Below are positions 1 through 15,450 of a stretch of 15,450 bases of DNA, one piece after another. The position numbers and the translations under genes are program-made. Source of the stretch: a virus (Duplodnaviria; Heunggongvirae; Uroviricota; Caudoviricetes); IMG/VR virus record IMGVR_UViG_2713897054_000018, positions 1 through 15,450 of that record; one strand, written 5' to 3'. Under the pieces are notes generated by a model. It worked only from the letters and a program-made list of their open reading frames with translations, searched no databases and was not told the origin of the DNA. The stretch's first letter is position 1. Every line of letters begins with the position of its first letter.

Positions 1-324
1 TAAACTCACAGCAAAGAAAGAAGCAATCCTAATATCCATAAATGCATCTGGACCACTGATTAAGGGAAATAAATAGGTTAAGAAATAATTTGTTATCTCC
101 TTATCTGCTGGAGAGGCGGTAGTTAATTTTTTACTGGTTACAGAATTATATTTAATTGCGTATTTAACAATCAAAACACACAGTAAAAGTATAATTGCAC
201 ACAATGATAAGTAAGCAATCATAAATTTATAGTGTTTTGATATACATGAAAGAAAAGCTAAGGTAAAAAATACCGGAGCAACTGAGCTGGCAGTAAGAAG
301 ATATTTGGCAAGCTTATTTAACAT
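1..324 (-). CDS. Hypothetical integral membrane protein, N-terminal 108 codons only; gene continues beyond the left edge of the window
   Basis: Hand translation of the minus strand from ATG at 324-322 gives MLNKLAKYLLTASSVAPVFFTLAFLSCISKHYKFMIAYLSLCAIILLLCVLIVKYAIKYNSVTSKKLTTASPADKEITNYFLTYLFPLISGPDAFMDIRIASFFAVSL with no stop before position 1. GGAGG lies 7 nt upstream of the ATG (+ strand 331-335 CCTCC). Two or three strongly hydrophobic segments suggest transmembrane helices. AT-rich. No family recognised. Confidence 0.5.
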   Translation of the reverse strand, partial: MLNKLAKYLLTASSVAPVFFTLAFLSCISKHYKFMIAYLSLCAIILLLCVLIVKYAIKYNSVTSKKLTTASPADKEITNYFLTYLFPLISGPDAFMDIRIASFFAVSL

Positions 325-495
325 ATTATCCTCCTTATCTGCCCTGGTGTCTGTATATAAAAACAGTATAACATCAATTTAAGCATCAAAGAAGATAATA
401 AAAATCAATTAAATCATAATGATGCCTGCGTTTTTAAAGTGTGGGCTTTTGGAGGCGGGTAATGTACGCGCGTATTCCCTGGAGATTCCATTTAA

Positions 496-513
496 AAGGC
501 TACGTATGTAGCC
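496..513 (-). terminator. Possible hairpin terminator or RNA structure just downstream of the 103-aa gene
   Basis: Perfect inverted repeat AGGCTAC-GTAT-GTAGCCT (7-bp stem, 4-nt loop) starting 9 nt after the stop of the 522..833 ORF. The trailing sequence on the minus strand (TTTAAAT) is only weakly U-rich. Confidence 0.25.
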
Positions 514-521
514 TCATGTAT

Positions 522-833
522 TTAAGAGTACTGGCCCCAATCTCTGGCAATAAACCAGTTTGGCGTCCAGCTAACAAACTCTTGCGGATGAAAGTTTTGA
601 GGGATTACAACTAGAGATACAATCGCTTCAGGTTGCAAACTGAGAACATGACTTTTTTTATCGCTTTCGTAATCCCAAAAATGGAATCTGTCACTTTTAT
701 CATGAGCTCTACGACTAGGACCGAAGTCCATAGGCGCAGTTAATCTTGTGATTGTCGCGTTATCTTCTTTTGAATAAAAAGTTAGCTGAATTTTTAAACA
801 ACTATGAATGGCATCAATGAATTTATCGCGCAT
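522..833 (-). CDS. Hypothetical 103-aa protein in the satellite variable (hotspot) region; function unknown
   Basis: ORF track 522..833 minus. Strong RBS: minus-strand sequence AAGGAG then 6 nt then ATG (+ strand 840-845 CTCCTT). AT-rich codon usage unlike the P4 core. No recognisable catalytic motif by eye. Confidence 0.55.
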   Translation of the reverse strand: MRDKFIDAIHSCLKIQLTFYSKEDNATITRLTAPMDFGPSRRAHDKSDRFHFWDYESDKKSHVLSLQPEAIVSLVVIPQNFHPQEFVSWTPNWFIARDWGQYS

Positions 834-1788: not shown

Positions 1789-2289
1789 TCATTCCAGACG
1801 CAGCGAATATGATTGTGTTTTTAACCGTACTGGCGGCAGTTCCTGTTTTTCATGCAGGCGTTCTGCCAGTTCGTCCGGCGTGACCGGGCGGACAATGAAG
1901 CGGTTGATGGTCTGAAGCGTTTTAAACACCAGACCACAGCCCGGATCCGTGCACACATAAAAACGCTCGGTGACTTCCTGAGACAGACGCCGCGATGTTC
2001 TTGACAGTGCAAGGCCTTTACATCTCCGACAACAATATCCGGTAACAAGCATTCTTTTCGGGCGTTTCATACTGCCGGAGGCTGACGTCAGTGAATCGCG
2101 GTATCTCTGTTTGCCTGAAATGTATTCCATTCCTGAATCTTTACAGTCAGAGAAAAAGCTTTCACTCGCTTCAAATGTCGCAGAGCAATAAATATTCCGG
2201 CACTGTGCAATCATTATCTTGGTGCCATCGTCCATGAAATGTGCGCGGCGGGTGTGAGCAACATGTCCACACGACGGGCAGTAAATCAT
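1789..2289 (-). CDS. delta: Delta, late-gene transcriptional activator (tandem Ogr-like zinc-finger domains)
   Basis: 166-aa ORF, the same length as P4 Delta. Two Cys4 zinc-finger units are present (CPSCGH...C..C and CRRCKG...C..C). Its start overlaps the sid stop (ATGA at 2286-2289). Confidence 0.9.
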   Translation of the reverse strand: MIYCPSCGHVAHTRRAHFMDDGTKIMIAQCRNIYCSATFEASESFFSDCKDSGMEYISGKQRYRDSLTSASGSMKRPKRMLVTGYCCRRCKGLALSRTSRRLSQEVTERFYVCTDPGCGLVFKTLQTINRFIVRPVTPDELAERLHEKQELPPVRLKTQSYSLRLE

Positions 2290-3020
2290 GACAGCAGTCC
2301 TCTGGCCTTAAGCTCTGCACCCTGCTGGTCTATTTTGTCCTGCCACACCTTGCGCTGTGCCGGTGTGCCTGCCACCTCATAATCCATGTGCGGGAGTGTT
2401 GCCGCTGACAGTCCGGTCAGCCGGAGAACCGGCTCGCCGGTGAGGCTGATTTGCATCTGTTTTATTTTCTGTTCCAGCGATGATTTCACCTGCTGCATGA
2501 CAGCCTTTTCCGCCGCGACGTAGCCCTGATGGCCGGTGGTGTTGGCGAGCGGATTTTCCTGTACCAGGATGCTCAGATGCATTGCCCGGACAAGCGCCTC
2601 ACAGGTTTCATTCAGGGCGTGTTCCAGCTCATGCTCTGCATACAGACTCAGCAGGTGATGATGTGCCTTCCGGTAGGCGGTGGCCGTGCTGTCACACGCC
2701 CCTTTCAGGCGTTCACATTCAAAATTCAGCACCACGGCCAGATTGTCATATTCCTGTACCAGCTCCCGGCGTGCCACGCGCTCAATGTGGCGCTGTTTCA
2801 GCTCGTCGCTCAGGACACCACCGGCTGCACGAAAGGCCGTGCGCCAGTCGTCAGCGTCGTTTCCGTCGGCCTGCGCCAGCGCATTTTTTTCCTGCTCTGC
2901 CCGTTCAATGGCCGTGATGGTCTCATCCATCAGGCGGGCGTTCTCAAGATGAGCGGCTCTGGCCTTTTCCAGTTGTGCCAGCGCGGGTTGCAGATATTCA
3001 GGGATGGTGTTGTCAGACAT
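2286..3020 (-). CDS. sid: Sid, capsid size-determination (external scaffold) protein
   Basis: The ORF track gives 250 aa from a GTG at 3038. The ATG at 3020 has GAGGAG 7 nt upstream and gives 244 aa, the P4 Sid length. It is the first gene of the late operon and is translationally coupled to delta. Confidence 0.85.
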   Translation of the reverse strand: MSDNTIPEYLQPALAQLEKARAAHLENARLMDETITAIERAEQEKNALAQADGNDADDWRTAFRAAGGVLSDELKQRHIERVARRELVQEYDNLAVVLNFECERLKGACDSTATAYRKAHHHLLSLYAEHELEHALNETCEALVRAMHLSILVQENPLANTTGHQGYVAAEKAVMQQVKSSLEQKIKQMQISLTGEPVLRLTGLSAATLPHMDYEVAGTPAQRKVWQDKIDQQGAELKARGLLS

Positions 3021-3092
3021 TTTCCGGCTCCTCGTCACTTCAGGTTAAGAAAATTGTGACGTACACCGGACAACAACACGACGCATTGCAGA

Positions 3093-3110
3093 TGTGCCAG
3101 CCCTGACACA
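3093..3110 (-). promoter_or_regulatory. Candidate Delta/Ogr binding site (TGT-N12-ACA) of the sid late promoter
   Basis: TGT GCCAGCCCTGAC ACA dyad centred about 80 bp upstream of the sid ATG, which is the right distance for a site centred near -55 with a short 5' UTR. A second TGT-N12-ACA at 3055-3072 is too close to sid to serve the same promoter. Confidence 0.45.
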
Positions 3111-3189
3111 GGAGACTCATCCTCAGACCGGCAAGCCAGGAAAAGGTCGCAGGAAAAACCGGCTTACTGTTTGTTTTTTTATATTTTAC

Positions 3190-3293
3190 TGTTCACCTCT
3201 GTTCACCATAAGAAAAAAGATAAGTAATACAGTAAGTTAAATGGTGAACAATCGCAGTAATGACTGTTCACCGTCTGTTCACCACTGTTCACC
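3190..3293. repeat. ori-like cluster of type I iterons (TGTTCACC), the expected binding sites for the alpha protein
   Basis: Exact TGTTCACC at 3190-3197, 3200-3207, 3265-3272, 3276-3283 and 3286-3293, plus an inverted copy GGTGAACA at 3243-3250. Lies between the divergent sid promoter and the leftward-operon promoters. Confidence 0.7.
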
Positions 3294-3452
3294 CGCTCAT
3301 GGACTTTTTGTGCTGTTTACTACTGTTTGTTTTTATTAATTCGCCGGGAATGAATAAGAAGAAACGATTTGTATTTCACTATAAAAATTACGAATTGCTT
3401 TAAGTGGCTTTAAATGACTTTAAGTGGGAATGAACAAAAAACACACAGTCAT

Positions 3453-3470
3453 TGTAAGGCGGCCGGAACA
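3453..3470 (+). promoter_or_regulatory. Candidate Delta/Ogr binding site (TGT-N12-ACA) of the late promoter for the leftward operon (P4 PLL equivalent)
   Basis: TGT AAGGCGGCCGGA ACA. A site centred near -55 predicts a start near 3516, about 400 bp upstream of the candidate early promoter, which matches the P4 PLL-PLE spacing. The vis ATG follows at 3573. Confidence 0.4.
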
Positions 3471-3572
3471 AATCCCCCCTGTTGCGTCTGCCAAAAAGAT
3501 TCACAAAATAAAGCGCTACCCGAAGCCGGACGGACTTATCCGGTGCTGTATGGACATTAACGAGGTAGCCCG

Positions 3573-3839
3573 ATGCAAGCTGTTTTTTCTTCCCCGTCTC
3601 CCTCCCCTGTGACGCCACTGATGCCGCTGCCGGACATCACGCAGGAGCGTTTTTTACGTCTGCCGGAAGTGATGCACCTGTGCGGCCTGTCACGCTCGAC
3701 CATCTATGAACTCATCCGTAAGGGGGAATTTCCGCCGCAGGTGAGTCTTGGCGGTAAAAATGTGGCCTGGCTGCACTCTGAAGTCACCGCATGGATGGCC
3801 GGGCGCATTGCCGGACGCAAACGGGGGTACGACGCATGA
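3573..3839 (+). CDS. vis: Vis-like small DNA-binding protein (AlpA family excision/regulatory protein)
   Basis: 88-aa ORF with GAGG 7 nt upstream of the ATG. The core [22 protein letters not shown]....LG...V.W...EV..W is an AlpA-type helix-turn-helix signature. Position matches P4 vis, between the late and early leftward promoters. Confidence 0.65.
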
Positions 3840-3883
3840 TGATGCCTGTTCTGCAAAAACTCCCTTTTTCTGGCTTGCCTTTT

Positions 3884-3913
3884 TCCGGCATTTGCGGATA
3901 TAGTTTTTCCGCT
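3884..3913 (+). promoter_or_regulatory. Candidate sigma-70 early promoter of the leftward operon (P4 PLE equivalent)
   Basis: TTGCCT (3884-3889), 18-nt spacer, TATAGT (3908-3913). The seqA-like element begins about 15 bp downstream. Confidence 0.35.
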
Positions 3914-4104
3914 GTCGCAAAATCGGCAGCCGGGCGTGAGAACCCGAGTATGTTATCGGCGACATATGACGCGCCATGCGTCTTTTTTTGTGTCGCAATC
4001 AACGCCACAGAGCACCAGATTATGGTGTGGCGTGTGGTTTGCCGTGCAGGTATGATCCTGTTCGCAATCGCATGTTATGCCTCTGAGTCAATGGTAGCTC
4101 AGGC

Positions 4105-4155
4105 GGGGCAGCCTCCGGGCTGGCCGGTTTCCGATAACGCCGGTATTCTCACCCC
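4105..4155 (+). ncRNA. cI: Candidate CI-like immunity RNA core (seqB), flanked by complementary seqA-like (about 3929-3963) and seqC-like (about 4176-4223) targets; boundaries approximate
   Basis: CCGATAACGCCGGTATTCTCAC (about 4128-4150) is complementary to the direct repeats GCGTGAGAAC...GTTATCGG found at 3929-3963 and 4176-4220. The seqC copy overlaps the RBS of the next ORF (GTTATCGGAGG). This is the arrangement of P4 transcription-termination immunity. Confidence 0.35.
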
Positions 4156-4228
4156 CGTCTGGGCTATCGCCATCGAGCGTGAGAACTCCGGCGATAGCGT
4201 CATTTACGCTGTTATCGGAGGTTGCCTT

Positions 4229-4426
4229 ATGGCTACGACCCTTACCCCTTCACACCCTGAATTTGTCTTTGTGTTTGCGGCTGTCCGTCGCGCAGACCGT
4301 CATCCCCGTATCTGCATGCTTCGCACCGTCGCCGGTGATGAACGCAGTGCCCGCCGTTCCCTTGTCCGTGACTATGTGCTCTCCCTTGCTGCCCGTCTGC
4401 CAGTGGTGGAGGTGTCCCGTGCGTAA
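4229..4426 (+). CDS. Small early protein (65 aa), first translated ORF after the immunity leader; kil/eta-like by position
   Basis: ATG at 4229 with GGAGG 7 nt upstream. It is in frame with the longer 3791..4426 ORF, whose upstream part covers the promoter and immunity RNA region and is probably not coding. Its stop overlaps the next start (GTGCGTAA). Confidence 0.45.
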
Positions 4427-5624: not shown

Positions 5625-6062
5625 ATGAAAATGAACGTAACCGCCACCGTCAGCCATGCGCTCGGCCACTGGCCGCGTATTCTCCCGGCGCTGGGGATTC
5701 AGGTGCTGAAAAACCGTCATCAGCCCTGTCCGGTCTGTGGCGGGAGTGACCGCTTCCGTTTTGATGACAGGGAGGGGCGCGGCACCTGGTACTGCAATCA
5801 GTGTGGTGCCGGTGACGGCCTGAAACTGGTTGAAAAGGTGTTTGGTGTCTCCCCGTCCGACGCGGCCACAAAGGTGGCTGCCGTGACCGGCAGCCTGCCC
5901 CCGGCTGACCCGGCAGTGACGGCCGCCGCCGGTGCTGAAACAGAAGCCGCCCGGAAGAACGCCGCCGCACTGGCACAAACCCTGATGGCGAAAACCCGTC
6001 CCGGAACCGGTAACGCCTACCTGACCCGCAAGGCTTTCCCGGCCGGGAATGCCGGATGCTGA
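5625..6062 (+). CDS. alpha: Alpha primase-helicase, N-terminal fragment (zinc-binding primase domain), ended by an apparent frameshift
   Basis: 145-aa ORF with AGGAG 9 nt upstream. Contains a CxxC...CxxC zinc motif (CPVCGGSDRFRFDDREGRGTWYCNQCG). It continues in another frame as the 633-aa ORF, and 145 + 633 is about the 777 aa of P4 alpha. Confidence 0.75.
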   Translation: MKMNVTATVSHALGHWPRILPALGIQVLKNRHQPCPVCGGSDRFRFDDREGRGTWYCNQCGAGDGLKLVEKVFGVSPSDAATKVAAVTGSLPPADPAVTAAAGAETEAARKNAAALAQTLMAKTRPGTGNAYLTRKAFPAGNAGC

Positions 6063-7957
6063 CCGGCACACACAGAGCCGGTGGCGTGAGCTGGCGTGCC
6101 GGTGACCTTGTGGTGCCACTGTATGACGACAGCGGCGAACTGGTTAACCTTCAGTTAATCAGTGCTGACGGCCGTAAGCGCACCCTGAAAGGCGGGCAGG
6201 TCAGGGGCACCTGTCACATCCTTGAAGGACAGAATCAGGCCGGAAAACGTCTGTGGATAGCGGAGGGATACGCGACCGCACTTACCGTGCATCACCTGAC
6301 CGGTGAAACGGTGATGGTGGCGCTTTCTTCCGTGAACCTCCTTTCTCTGGCCAGCCTTGCCCGGCAGAAGCATCCGGCCTGTCAGATTGTCCTTGCCGCA
6401 GACCGTGACCTCAGCGGTGACGGCCAGAAAAAAGCCGCCGCAGCCGCAGATGCGTGTGAAGGTGTTGTTGCCCTGCCGCCGGTCTTCGGTGACTGGAATG
6501 ATGCCTTCACGCAGTACGGCGGGGAAGCCACCCGTAAGGCCATTTATGATGCCATCCGGCCACCGGCTGAAAGCCCGTTCGACACCATGAGCGAAGCGGA
6601 GTTTTCCGCCATGAGTACCAGCGAAAAGGCCATGCGTATCTATGAGCATTACGGCGAGGCGCTCGCGGTTGATGCCAACGGCCAGCTTCTGTCCCGTTAT
6701 GAAAATGGTGTCTGGAAGGTGCTGCCACCACAGGACTTTGCCCGGGATGTGGCCGGGCTGTTTCAGCGGCTGCGCGCGCCGTTCTCCTCCGGGAAGGTGG
6801 CCTCCGTGGTGGACACCCTGAAGCTGATTATTCCGCAGCAGGAAGCCCCCTCCCGCCGCCTGATTGGCTTTCGTAACGGCGTGCTCGACACGCAGAACGG
6901 CACGTTCCACCCGCACAGTCCGTCACACTGGATGCGCACCCTGTGCGATGTGGATTTCACCCCGCCGGTGGAAGGGGAAACGCTGGAAACCCACGCCCCC
7001 GCGTTCTGGCGCTGGCTTGACCGTGCCGCCGGTGGCCGTGCGGAAAAACGCGACGTGATTCTGGCCGCACTGTTTATGGTGCTGGCAAACCGCTACGACT
7101 GGCAGCTCTTTCTGGAGGTGACCGGTCCCGGCGGCAGCGGCAAAAGTATCATGGCCGAAATAGCCACCCTGCTGGCCGGGGAGGATAACGCCACGTCGGC
7201 CACCATTGAGACGCTGGAATCCCCGCGTGAACGTGCCGCGTTAACTGGCTTCTCACTGATACGCCTGCCGGACCAGGAAAAATGGAGCGGCGACGGAGCC
7301 GGACTCAAGGCCATCACCGGCGGCGATGCAGTGTCCGTTGACCCGAAATACCGGGATGCGTACTCCACGCACATCCCGGCGGTGATTCTGGCCGTGAACA
7401 ATAACCCGATGCGCTTCACCGACCGCAGCGGCGGCGTGTCACGCCGGCGGGTGATTATTCACTTCCCGGAACAGATAGCCCCGCAGGAGCGCGACCCGCA
7501 GCTTAAGGACAAAATCACCCGCGAGCTGGCGGTCATCGTGCGTCACCTGATGCAGAAGTTCAGCGACCCGATGCTCGCCCGGTCACTGCTTCAGTCCCAG
7601 CAGAACTCAGACGAGGCGCTGAACATCAAACGGGATGCCGACCCGACGTTTGATTTTATCGGCTATCTGGAAACCCTGCCGCAGACCAGCGGCATGTATA
7701 TGGGGAACGCCAGTATCATCCCGCGTAATTACCGTAAATACCTCTATCACGCCTATCTGGCCTACATGGAGGCAAACGGCTACCGGAATGTACTCAGTCT
7801 GAAAATGTTCGGGCTGGGGCTGCCGGTGATGCTGAAGGAATACGGACTGAATTACGAGAAGCGCCATACCAAACAGGGGATACAGACCAACCTGACGCTG
7901 AAAGAGGAAAGCTACGGCGACTGGCTGCCAAAATGTGACGACCCTGCAACAGCCTGA
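6056..7957 (+). CDS. alpha: Alpha primase-helicase, C-terminal part (TOPRIM-like primase core plus helicase with Walker A GPGGSGKS)
   Basis: 633-aa ORF. Its frame is open back to 6014 and overlaps the N-terminal fragment. Walker A motif VTGPGGSGKS is present. It is followed directly by the crr iteron repeats. Confidence 0.8.
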   Translation: MLTGTHRAGGVSWRAGDLVVPLYDDSGELVNLQLISADGRKRTLKGGQVRGTCHILEGQNQAGKRLWIAEGYATALTVHHLTGETVMVALSSVNLLSLASLARQKHPACQIVLAADRDLSGDGQKKAAAAADACEGVVALPPVFGDWNDAFTQYGGEATRKAIYDAIRPPAESPFDTMSEAEFSAMSTSEKAMRIYEHYGEALAVDANGQLLSRYENGVWKVLPPQDFARDVAGLFQRLRAPFSSGKVASVVDTLKLIIPQQEAPSRRLIGFRNGVLDTQNGTFHPHSPSHWMRTLCDVDFTPPVEGETLETHAPAFWRWLDRAAGGRAEKRDVILAALFMVLANRYDWQLFLEVTGPGGSGKSIMAEIATLLAGEDNATSATIETLESPRERAALTGFSLIRLPDQEKWSGDGAGLKAITGGDAVSVDPKYRDAYSTHIPAVILAVNNNPMRFTDRSGGVSRRRVIIHFPEQIAPQERDPQLKDKITRELAVIVRHLMQKFSDPMLARSLLQSQQNSDEALNIKRDADPTFDFIGYLETLPQTSGMYMGNASIIPRNYRKYLYHAYLAYMEANGYRNVLSLKMFGLGLPVMLKEYGLNYEKRHTKQGIQTNLTLKEESYGDWLPKCDDPATA

Positions 7958-8008
7958 CCCACCTGACCGGCATCTGCCGGTCTTTTTTTTATCCCGACAT
8001 CCCCCGAA

Positions 8009-8275
8009 GGTGAACAATCCACTGTTCACCCTTCACCGTATATTCACCCGTTATCACACTGAAATTAAAAGAGAAAAACGAAAGGTGAACAGTGTAATCA
8101 AATCAAAAAAACTTTTTTTCTCCCTGTGTGATTTCAGTACGGGGGATTAATCACCGGTATGAGTCACACCGGCAGAATGCCGGAGGTGAAGAATCGAATG
8201 TTCACCCTTCACCCATTATTCACCACCTATCACTCTGAAATAAAAGGAGAAAAAAGAAAGGTGAACAGTGTGAAC
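8009..8275. repeat. crr-like cis replication region: two direct repeats of about 85-120 bp, each carrying TGTTCACC iterons
   Basis: Repeat unit 1 at about 8020-8105 and unit 2 at about 8194-8280 (CCACTGTTCACCCTTCACCG...GAAAGGTGAACAGTG in both). Exact octamers at 8009-8016 and 8083-8090 (both inverted), 8023-8030, 8199-8206 and 8259-8266 (inverted), plus degenerate copies. About 4.8 kb from the ori-like cluster. Confidence 0.7.
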
Positions 8276-8319
8276 AGTTCTTTCGAAAAAAAATTTTTTA
8301 TGTGGATAAAAGATGCACT

Positions 8320-8346
8320 GGTTTGGATCCGAGCTACGGATCCAAA
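8320..8346. repeat. Perfect 11-bp inverted repeat with 5-nt loop (GTTTGGATCCG agcta CGGATCCAAAC)
   Basis: Read directly from the sequence. It sits in the AT-rich stretch between crr and the att-like core. It could be a protein binding site or an RNA hairpin. Confidence 0.4.
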
Positions 8347-8492
8347 CTTACTGATTAAAAATGATTTAACTTTCCGATTTATTGATGGGCTGAAAATAGA
8401 TTGGTCAGAAAAACAGTGGGGGCACAAAAGGGGGCATATTTCATTGTTGTATTTTATTATTTGTTTTTTATCATTAACTTATTTTGATGTTT

Positions 8493-8513
8493 GAGTCCGG
8501 CCTTCGCACCACA
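8493..8513 (+). other. att-like core: fragment resembling the 3' end of a tRNA-Leu (leuX-like) gene; probable right boundary of the satellite
   Basis: GAGTCCGGCCTTCGCACCA resembles the T-arm and acceptor 3' end of E. coli leuX as I recall it (GAGTCCGGCCTTCGGCACCA), differing by one base. There is no intact T-stem or anticodon arm upstream, so it is a fragment. A strong terminator follows, and composition changes on both sides. Confidence 0.45.
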
Positions 8514-11973: not shown

Positions 11974-13205
11974 TTAATTACTGACAGTTTCAGGTTTCGG
12001 GAAACTGAACAGTAAATCACGATAGTACTCGTATTGTTTCTGGCGCAACTCGATTTCACGCGGAAGGCCTTCGGTGATGGAGTTTGTCAGGGTGTCGAAT
12101 TTATCGAGAATAGATACTATACGTTCCTGTATCTCCATAGAAGGGACTGGAATTAATATCTTAGATAAATTATCAGCATTTACACGTCGAACTTTTGCGC
12201 CAGTAATATACTGTCTTTTTTGATTTTGGAATTGTTCTGTTTGAAAAAAATATGAGACATACTTAGGGTTTAAATTATGTTTGTAAATACAGGCATCACT
12301 GCTTACTGCTATATCTTCACTGCCTAACCATGCAACAGCTTTACATACATCCTCATCATTCTCACTAGTAGTTGCGATAATCAAATCTCCCTTTTGAGCT
12401 TCTTGCATTTTTTTGCAAGTGCGGTTGAAATATATGTTTTTGTTTTTTCTGTATATGTTCCGTAATACGTATAGATTTGACCATAGTGTATGCACCCTAC
12501 ACCTGCATCTATAAAGTCTTTTTTCTGAAAAGTACCACCCCGGATAAACTCGCCAATATCTTTTTGCCCCATAGGTAAATGTGGAACATCTTCGGTATTA
12601 AAACTAAACAACTGGTCGCGATAGTAGTTGTACTGTTTTTTACGCATGTTAAGCTCAGCGGTAAGCTCAGCGGTAAGTGCAGTAAACTTATCCAGAATCC
12701 GAACAATTTCAGACTGGATGGCAAGGGATTTCTCCGGATTATCCGGGCAGGGGATGGGGACTAACCTTTTTTCAATTGTAGTTTTGCTGATGTGCATCAT
12801 AGTAGAACCAGTGCTATGTGCATCTTTAAGTGCTTTAGTATCCCATTGTAACAAGTAATATAGAAACTGTTTACAAATAAGATTCGAATCTGGAACCACT
12901 TTCCATATGTGATAATGGTAAATAGATTTACCCCCATGCCAAATTCTTGGACCAAATGATGCGGACCAAGCATATAAAAGGTCACCGTTATCACAATACT
13001 TGTCTTGATCTAATTCTAAATCTGAGTAATACCAATTTTGGTTAGTAAAAAAATTACCGACTCTTAATACTGGATATTTGCCTTTGGAAAGCAGTTCTTC
13101 TTGCTTATATGCTCTCCCGTTTATTAAACGACAAACTTTAGCCAATGGCAACCACTCAACTTCAACCCCATCCAGCAATTTTTCCAGATAACTTAACTCG
13201 CTCAT
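11974..13205 (-). pseudogene. hsdS: Type I specificity subunit (HsdS), type IC family with two TAEL repeats; reading frame broken into 274- and 173-codon ORFs
   Basis: The N-terminal ORF (12381..13205) begins [21 protein letters not shown] and carries the central conserved region with LTAELTAEL. The C-terminal ORF (11974..12495) ends in the conserved ...LPREIELRQKQYEYYRDLLFSFPKPETVSN. The two overlap in different frames at a homopolymer tract (+ strand T7 at 12409-12415). The start overlaps the hsdM stop. Confidence 0.75.
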
Positions 13206-14758: not shown

Positions 14759-15063
14759 TTTTTATCCTTTGAATGTGTTTTTAACGTCGACTTTTGCCGG
14801 GATTTTACCGGAAGTTTTTTGGTTTTTCAGATTTGTATGACGGTGAGGAGGGGATTCAGTACCAGATTGTTAGTGCATCTTATTCAGCATTCACCGTTTG
14901 AGTCAGGAGCTACTTTATATGCCCATCGCCCATCCGTAGGTGATCAGATAATTTATTGCGAGTCACCTTCCCGATTTTCAATCTCATTATTTACCCAATC
15001 TTTCACCAGTGGATAATCCGTTTGCTACTAACGGCGAGTGTATTTTTTTACGGATGAAAGATT

Positions 15064-15233
15064 ATGCAAACAGAAGCTGAAGTCTTAACCGATCATAACG
15101 AACTAATTTGCTCGACCAGTATCGAGCGTATCGTCACAGGACGTGATAGTGCACTGAACCAGATAGCGACGTTAATCCAAAAACTTCATGATATCTCCAG
15201 TCTGACATCCAGTATTGGCGGTGATGTGGCTGC
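15064..15233 (+). CDS. Hypothetical protein, N-terminal about 56 codons only; truncated by the IS3 insertion
   Basis: The ORF track's 62-aa ORF (15064..15252) runs into the IS3 terminal repeat starting at 15234, so its last 6 codons and stop are IS-derived. The RBS is weak. Identity unknown. Confidence 0.3.
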
Positions 15234-15450
15234 TGATCTTACCCAGCAATAGTGGACACGCGGCTAAGTGAGTAAACTCTCAGTCAGAGGTGACTCACAT
15301 GACAAAAACAGTATCAACCAGTAAAAAACCCCGTAAACAGCATTCGCCTGAATTTCGCAGTGAAGCCCTGAAGCTTGCTGAACGCATCGGTGTTACTGCC
15401 GCAGCCCGTGAACTCAGCCTGTATGAATCACAGCTCTACAACTGGCGCAG
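15234..15450 (+). mobile_element. IS3 (IS3 family), left end with terminal inverted repeat; continues beyond the window
   Basis: Terminal sequence TGATCTTACCCAGCAATAGTGGACACGCGGCTAAGTGAG... matches my recollection of the IS3 left inverted repeat. It is followed by the orfA start. Confidence 0.75.
15299..15450 (+). CDS. IS3 transposase OrfA, N-terminal part (helix-turn-helix); runs off the window
   Basis: Translation MTKTVSTSKKPRKQHSPEFRSEALKLAERIGVTAAARELSLYESQLYNWR matches the IS3 OrfA N-terminus as I recall it. Confidence 0.8.
   Translation, partial: MTKTVSTSKKPRKQHSPEFRSEALKLAERIGVTAAARELSLYESQLYNWR

Follow-up and report, generated by a model that had tools for sequence, protein, structure and literature searches.

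In satellite phage P4, a single polypeptide of 777 aa, alpha (NP_042036.1), serves as primase, helicase, and origin-binding protein (Ziegelin et al. 1993, as cited in PMC8628076). P4-like variants without alpha are reported to be frequent, and the study that described them was unable to tell whether alpha pseudogenes are present (PMC8628076). Among P4-like satellites, a different core gene, alpA, has been found repeatedly as a frameshift pseudogene (PMC8628076). Given these alpha-less variants and recurrent alpA pseudogenes, a real lesion in an alpha gene is biologically plausible. We analyzed a window (i.e., the whole stretch of DNA presented here; 15,450 bases) that is a piece of an E. coli chromosome and in which an alpha gene is read as two ORFs. 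The following features were located at this gene.

5625..6062, plus strand: upstream alpha ORF, 145 aa with an ATG start (from the translation)
6056..7957, plus strand: downstream alpha ORF, 633 aa with an ATG start (from the translation)
6014..6062, plus strand: stretch of 49 bases in which both frames are open (from the translations and the alignment)
6032..6033, plus strand: lesion site, GG in the window, at codons K136/G137 (from nucleotide alignments)
5625..7957, plus strand: whole alpha gene, interrupted as written, 777 aa once one G is restored

The initial annotation had reported ORFs of 145 codons (5625..6062) and 633 codons (6056..7957) in different frames, and the translations bore this out; every coordinate and the sequence quoted there were correct. 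The upstream ORF consists of alpha residues 1 to 136 followed by a 9-residue out-of-frame tail (AFPAGNAGC). The downstream frame, which is at -1 relative to the upstream frame in the alignment to P4 alpha, contains a stop codon at 6011-6013 and opens at 6014, the position stated in the initial annotation, whose interval of 6014-6062 is thus the overlap of the two frames. The start codon of the 633-aa ORF and the stop codon of the 145-aa ORF overlap at 6056..6062 (ATGCTGA).

Nucleotide alignment of 5625..7957 with P4 alpha (NC_001609) yielded 39 mismatches and exactly one gap (98.3% DNA identity). At the gap, P4 reads CGCAAGGGCTTT and the window reads CGCAAGGCTTT, in which the GG occupies 6032-6033; the single-base indel had been placed at about 6030-6033. 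Phage P4 and the relatives have GGG at this site (GGA in one), versus GG in the window. The identical single gap was obtained in alignments with E. coli FWSEC0008, STEC2017-197, MB07081, and ATCC 8739, and apart from the missing G, the window alpha is the STEC2017-197 allele. Restoring one G produced the junction peptide ...LTRKGFPGRECRMLTG..., exactly as predicted beforehand, and a protein of 777 aa, the length of ~777 aa that had been anticipated for the alpha-like gene. The repaired protein differs from P4 alpha at 9 residues (99% identity) and is identical to WP_000783688.1 (FWSEC0008 and STEC2017-197). In a tblastn search of phage records, the top match was phage P4 alpha (99% identity, residues 1 to 773). 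Given the 99% identity of the repaired protein to P4 alpha, the observation of a single gap is far beyond chance.

The domain content of the two ORFs was that of alpha. Pfam searches detected Zn_Ribbon_Prim at aa 30 to 66 of the upstream ORF (E value, 2.4e-19), with CPVCG...CNQCG visible in the translation. In the downstream ORF, they detected Toprim_3 (aa 66 to 155, or 210 to 299 in the repaired numbering; E value, 3.7e-13), D5_N (aa 192 to 323; 4.2e-12), the P-loop helicase module DUF5906 (aa 356 to 464; 1.9e-9), and a C-terminal Pox_D5 (aa 526 to 624; 2.5e-16). The translation of this ORF also displays the Walker A motif (GPGGSGKS) and the EGYATA primase motif, the latter as "LWIAEGYATALTV"; EGYATA was reportedly described by Strack et al. 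in 1992 as diagnostic of the P4 alpha primase core. The sequence features that define P4 alpha were all found in the window, except for one uninterrupted chain of ~777 aa (i.e., 145 + 633 codons instead), and alpha is such a chain in P4 and in all relatives examined. Judged from its sequence, the gene is the P4 alpha gene of a P4-type satellite, and there is nothing new in it.

The position of the break in the protein bears on how the arrangement should be described. The junction K136|G137 falls between the zinc ribbon (aa 30 to 66) and the Toprim domain (aa 210 to 299), so the cut lies within the primase part and not at the primase/helicase boundary, and the helicase remains joined to the TOPRIM domain in the 633-aa ORF. 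The wording "primase-helicase split" in the initial annotation is therefore misleading. A natural split at the primase/helicase boundary was rejected because the cut lies between zinc ribbon and TOPRIM and no relative is split.

We then considered the state of the element around the gene, in which the following features were recognized.

3190..3293, unstranded: P4 ori, with six TGTTCACC type-1 repeats that are predicted alpha binding sites (layout as in the annotated P4 ori)
7965..7990, plus strand: alpha terminator, GACCGGCA-TC-TGCCGGTC followed by T8 (read from the sequence; equivalent to the annotated "talpha" of P4)
8009..8267, unstranded: crr (cis-required replication region), marked by five TGTTCACC repeats (from comparison to the annotated P4 record)
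8493..8511, plus strand: attR core at the right end of the satellite, GAGTCCGGCCTTCGCACCA (read from the sequence)

The TGTTCACC repeats had 11 matches in the window versus 0.45 expected by chance. The order of the element in FWSEC0008 is tRNA-Leu, full integrase, KwaB-like and partner genes, psu/delta/sid, ori, immunity/early genes, ORF106/DUF5375, and alpha; the KwaB-like and partner genes take the place of the P4 accessory genes. An exact copy of the core lies within the left-end tRNA-Leu of FWSEC0008. Compared with the attP core of P4, GAGTCCGGCCTTCGGCACCA, the attR core GAGTCCGGCCTTCGCACCA is shorter by one base, and no exact or near-exact copy of the P4 attP core (up to 3 mismatches, ungapped) was found in the window. 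The shorter core is common to FWSEC0008 and STEC2017-197 and is thus not private to the window. With ori, crr, and terminator intact, the element bears no sign of decay, and the remaining satellite genes match those of intact relatives; the satellite looks complete and undecayed. An inherited pseudogene in a domesticated satellite is not supported, the lesion being unique to the window and the element showing no other decay.

Several other observations were made along the element and beyond it. The slot between int and psu, at 1..833 (minus strand) of the window and at 1907..3833 of locus L004, is occupied by a KwaB-like (Kiwa) gene and two small hypothetical genes, and the window starts within the 171-aa partner gene. 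In P4, this slot holds gop, beta, and cII instead; it is a known defense hotspot of P4-like satellites. At 3791..4426 (plus strand), in the immunity region, the gene models of different records disagree: P4 is annotated with a "cI gene product" of 137 aa where relatives have a longer gene of 196 aa, an "Icd-like cell division inhibitor" (window coordinates 3836..4426). A 111-aa ORF at 8159..8494 (plus strand), named "integrase" by RefSeq in relatives, corresponds to P4p05, an ORF of P4 predicted by GeneMark only. Its position over the crr and attP arm repeats makes it improbable that this is a genuine integrase gene. Beyond the satellite are the type I restriction genes hsdR, hsdS, and hsdM, together with a gene remnant and an IS3 element. 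The remnant is of a DUF4942 gene (a pseudogene in relatives) and is followed, within 15064..15450 (plus strand), by the start of an IS3 transposase with an annotated programmed frameshift. In FWSEC0008, McrB is found beyond the IS3 element; with McrB and the type I system nearby, the satellite adjoins a block of restriction systems.

To place the missing G in the context of the whole window, we aligned the 15,450 bases with the nearest complete genomes, FWSEC0008 (O91:H21) and STEC2017-197, both clinical isolates of the Shiga-toxin type. There were six variable columns only. Three of these were substitutions private to one reference, at each of which the window carries the majority base, and the other three were one-base deletions private to the window, which had no private substitution. 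Carrying the majority base at all three substitution sites, the window is itself neither of these two genomes. The 15.4-kb neighborhood in the two genomes is thus the same as the window but for one or two substitutions and the three missing bases. All three deletions are in G/C runs of 2 to 3 bases, namely, GGG to GG in alpha, CC to C in hsdS, and GG to G in an intergenic region; the two outside alpha were located as follows.

11974..13205, minus strand: hsdS (specificity subunit of the type I restriction system), interrupted to give ORFs of 173 and 274 aa
14909, plus strand: third private deletion, intergenic, a single G versus GG in relatives

The hsdS lesion is a single C at 12399, versus CC in relatives with an intact 410-aa gene (WP_001293043.1), and it is 6.4 kb from the break in alpha. 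The deletion at 14909 sits between hsdM and the DUF4942 gene remnant. The window has 122 runs of at least five bases, and each is the same in the references.

The two nearest genomes and three more provided a baseline of five complete genomes for the divergence of the locus. The private substitutions in these genomes numbered 1, 2, 49, 54, and 74, versus 0, 0, 1, 1, and 3 private indel events (i.e., ~36 substitutions per indel), and the pairwise ratios of substitutions to indels ranged from 148:3 to 208:9. Every gene, including alpha and hsdS, was intact in all five. If indels are ~3% of natural changes, the probability that all three of three private changes are indels is ~2e-5.

We searched for the three deletion alleles in E. 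coli complete genomes, using as queries the 91 bases centered on each deletion and counting a match of at least 99% as the deletion allele. None of the 999 genomes that carry the alpha stretch (in 1,193 places) had the alpha deletion, none of the 119 that carry the hsdS stretch had the deletion at 12399, and none of the 300 that carry the intergenic stretch had the deletion at 14909. Given that no genome matched a deletion query at 99% or more, the extra base is present in every genome. A single pattern admitting either alpha allele (GG plus 0 or 1 base) was also scanned over IMG/VR and GTDB. The alpha deletion was found at none of the 73 loci detected (69 in IMG/VR and 4 in GTDB), where the extra base was G in 72 and A in one. 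The deletion-only alpha pattern had no exact match in metagenome contigs, and the 145-aa and 633-aa products had no exact record among ~15 billion proteins or 153 billion gene positions. In a large protein collection, the repaired 777-aa protein was present on 96 contigs. The missing base is thus located, it is unique to this sequence, and the private changes of the window are indels only.

These data bear on whether a genuine frameshift mutation arose very recently in this strain alone, which would leave the satellite replication-defective and still integrated. Such a mutation would separate the zinc ribbon from the rest of alpha, and because zinc-ribbon primases generally need the zinc ribbon domain, the satellite should no longer be able to prime its own replication; the 633-aa fragment might still arise by reinitiation at ATGCTGA, and the Kiwa-like defense genes would remain usable. 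The frameshift is present in the sequence as given, a short G run is a possible slippage site, and the intact remainder of the element fits a very recent event. The published precedents (i.e., alpha-less P4-like variants and recurrent alpA frameshift pseudogenes; PMC8628076) point the same way. However, this explanation needs three independent one-base deletions within 15 kb without any substitution, at a locus where relatives have accumulated ~36 substitutions per indel, and it needs hsdS to have been hit likewise at the same time. Moreover, the allele was absent from the 999 E. coli genomes, IMG/VR, GTDB, the metagenome contigs, and the ~15 billion proteins, and runs of 2 to 3 bases are poor substrates for slippage, whereas the 122 longer runs are untouched. 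We consider a genuine mutation of this kind unlikely.

A particular mutational history would make all three deletions real, through either a deficiency in mismatch repair or a mutagen that causes frameshifts in G:C runs (ICR-191/acridine type). It would agree with the finding that every lost base is a G or C in a G/C run and with the complete lack of substitutions. Loss of mismatch repair, however, strongly raises transitions and targets long runs, and neither effect was seen, the 122 runs being unchanged; nothing points to a mutagenized laboratory strain, and the nearest relatives are clinical. Such a history seems extremely improbable.

The overlap of the two frames raised the possibility of a designed arrangement, that is, a programmed -1 frameshift or separate zinc-ribbon and TOPRIM-helicase polypeptides. 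One candidate slippage site was present in the overlap.

6035..6041, plus strand: heptamer T_TTC_CCG, of the form X_XXY_YYZ in the phasing of the upstream frame

By codon phasing, a -1 slip at this heptamer would restore alpha with a single change, G137A. The RNA just downstream is predicted to fold at -40.2 kcal/mol, somewhat better than shuffled sequence (z = -2.37). Nevertheless, the heptamer is in phase solely through the deletion, and its second triplet (CCC) is noncanonical, AAA or UUU being the usual second triplet of -1 frameshift sites. At 6042, the hairpin begins directly after the heptamer, with zero spacer; the distance expected for a stimulatory RNA structure is 5 to 9 nt. Intact alleles have the same local sequence save for the missing G, so the hairpin is probably not selected for frameshifting. 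As a frameshift site, T_TTC_CCG is conserved in no relative among the 999 E. coli genomes and the 73 IMG/VR and GTDB loci. A two-polypeptide design in related elements, which the initial annotation had named as an observation that would tell against its own proposal, was likewise looked for and seen in none of the 1,193 places in the 999 genomes and none of the 73 other loci, all of which have one uninterrupted ORF. The cut is, in addition, within the primase part rather than at the boundary where split primase/helicase genes occur. A designed arrangement is on these grounds vanishingly improbable. Programmed frameshifting, which had already been ranked last among the possible causes, was rejected, because the arrangement is conserved in no relative and the site is noncanonical.

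If the missing G were nonetheless real, the window would represent a freshly disabled satellite in which alpha is made as two pieces or, at a low level, as the near-normal G137A protein by slippage (i.e., a natural "leaky" replication mutant in a satellite that carries defense genes). We regard this outcome as highly improbable.

We conclude that the missing G is very probably a consensus indel error of sequencing or assembly, a cause that we infer from the pattern of changes. This explanation is favored over mutation because the private changes of the window are three one-base deletions with no substitution, each unique among hundreds of genomes, and because hsdS, likewise a conserved gene, carries the same kind of break 6.4 kb away. 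The deletions are in runs of 2 to 3 bases and the 122 longer runs are unchanged, unlike what is expected of replication slippage, which would favor long runs. Classic homopolymer errors (454, Ion Torrent, and nanopore) also strike long runs first, and the correctness of the long A/T runs in the window is a point against the error explanation. Given that the long runs are correct, the errors would have to be deletions scattered at random through a long-read consensus of low coverage or without polishing. The three losses in 15.45 kb correspond to ~2 per 10 kb, a rate that fits such a consensus.

According to this explanation, the window would contain an unremarkable P4-type satellite prophage of E. 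coli that is intact in all other respects and lies between the leuX tRNA-Leu and the attR core. The consensus of the source assembly would have lost one G of the GGG at 6032-6033, together with two more bases elsewhere in the window, and the real DNA would encode an intact 777-aa alpha with zinc-ribbon, TOPRIM primase, SF3 helicase, and origin-binding parts. Of the three causes offered by the initial annotation, sequencing or assembly error is therefore the one that we favor; genuine inactivation, listed first there and suggested by its title, is disfavored by three unique private deletions with zero substitutions. The apparent split of alpha is best attributed to error and not to a real feature of the satellite.

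The finding serves mainly as a quality control flag on the source assembly. Automated annotation would mistake alpha and hsdS for pseudogenes, and read support is needed before genes are scored in this way. Through such calls, the satellite would be misjudged as replication-defective and the adjoining type I restriction system as inactive. Were the deletion real, it would be a further, modestly interesting case of recent core gene inactivation in a P4-like satellite.

The locus can be compared with four kinds of known systems. It resembles -1 frameshift systems (e.g., dnaX, with A_AAA_AAG, and IS3 transposases such as the one annotated beside the window) in having overlapping frames, the second at -1, and an X_XXY_YYZ heptamer in the overlap; it differs from them in that its arrangement is conserved in no relative, its heptamer is noncanonical, and its hairpin has no spacer. 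It shares with the pseudogenes of P4-like satellites (alpA and the alpha-less "Type B#02"; de Sousa and Rocha, PMC8628076) a frameshift and an early stop in a core gene. The published pseudogenes, however, recur and are conserved within clades (PMC8628076), whereas the lesion in the window occurs in one sequence, accompanied by two other unique deletions. The likeness to P4 alpha itself extends through the same domain order (zinc ribbon, TOPRIM with EGYATA, D5_N, P-loop, and Pox_D5) to the same neighbors (ORF106/DUF5375 upstream; talpha, crr, and att downstream) and an ori with TGTTCACC repeats; the difference is that the window is without one G of the GGG at codons 136-137, which interrupts the ORF. 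Finally, the repaired window protein is identical to WP_000783688.1 ("primase-helicase zinc-binding domain-containing protein"), and FWSEC0008 and STEC2017-197 differ from the window in carrying the alpha G and both of the other bases that the window has lost.
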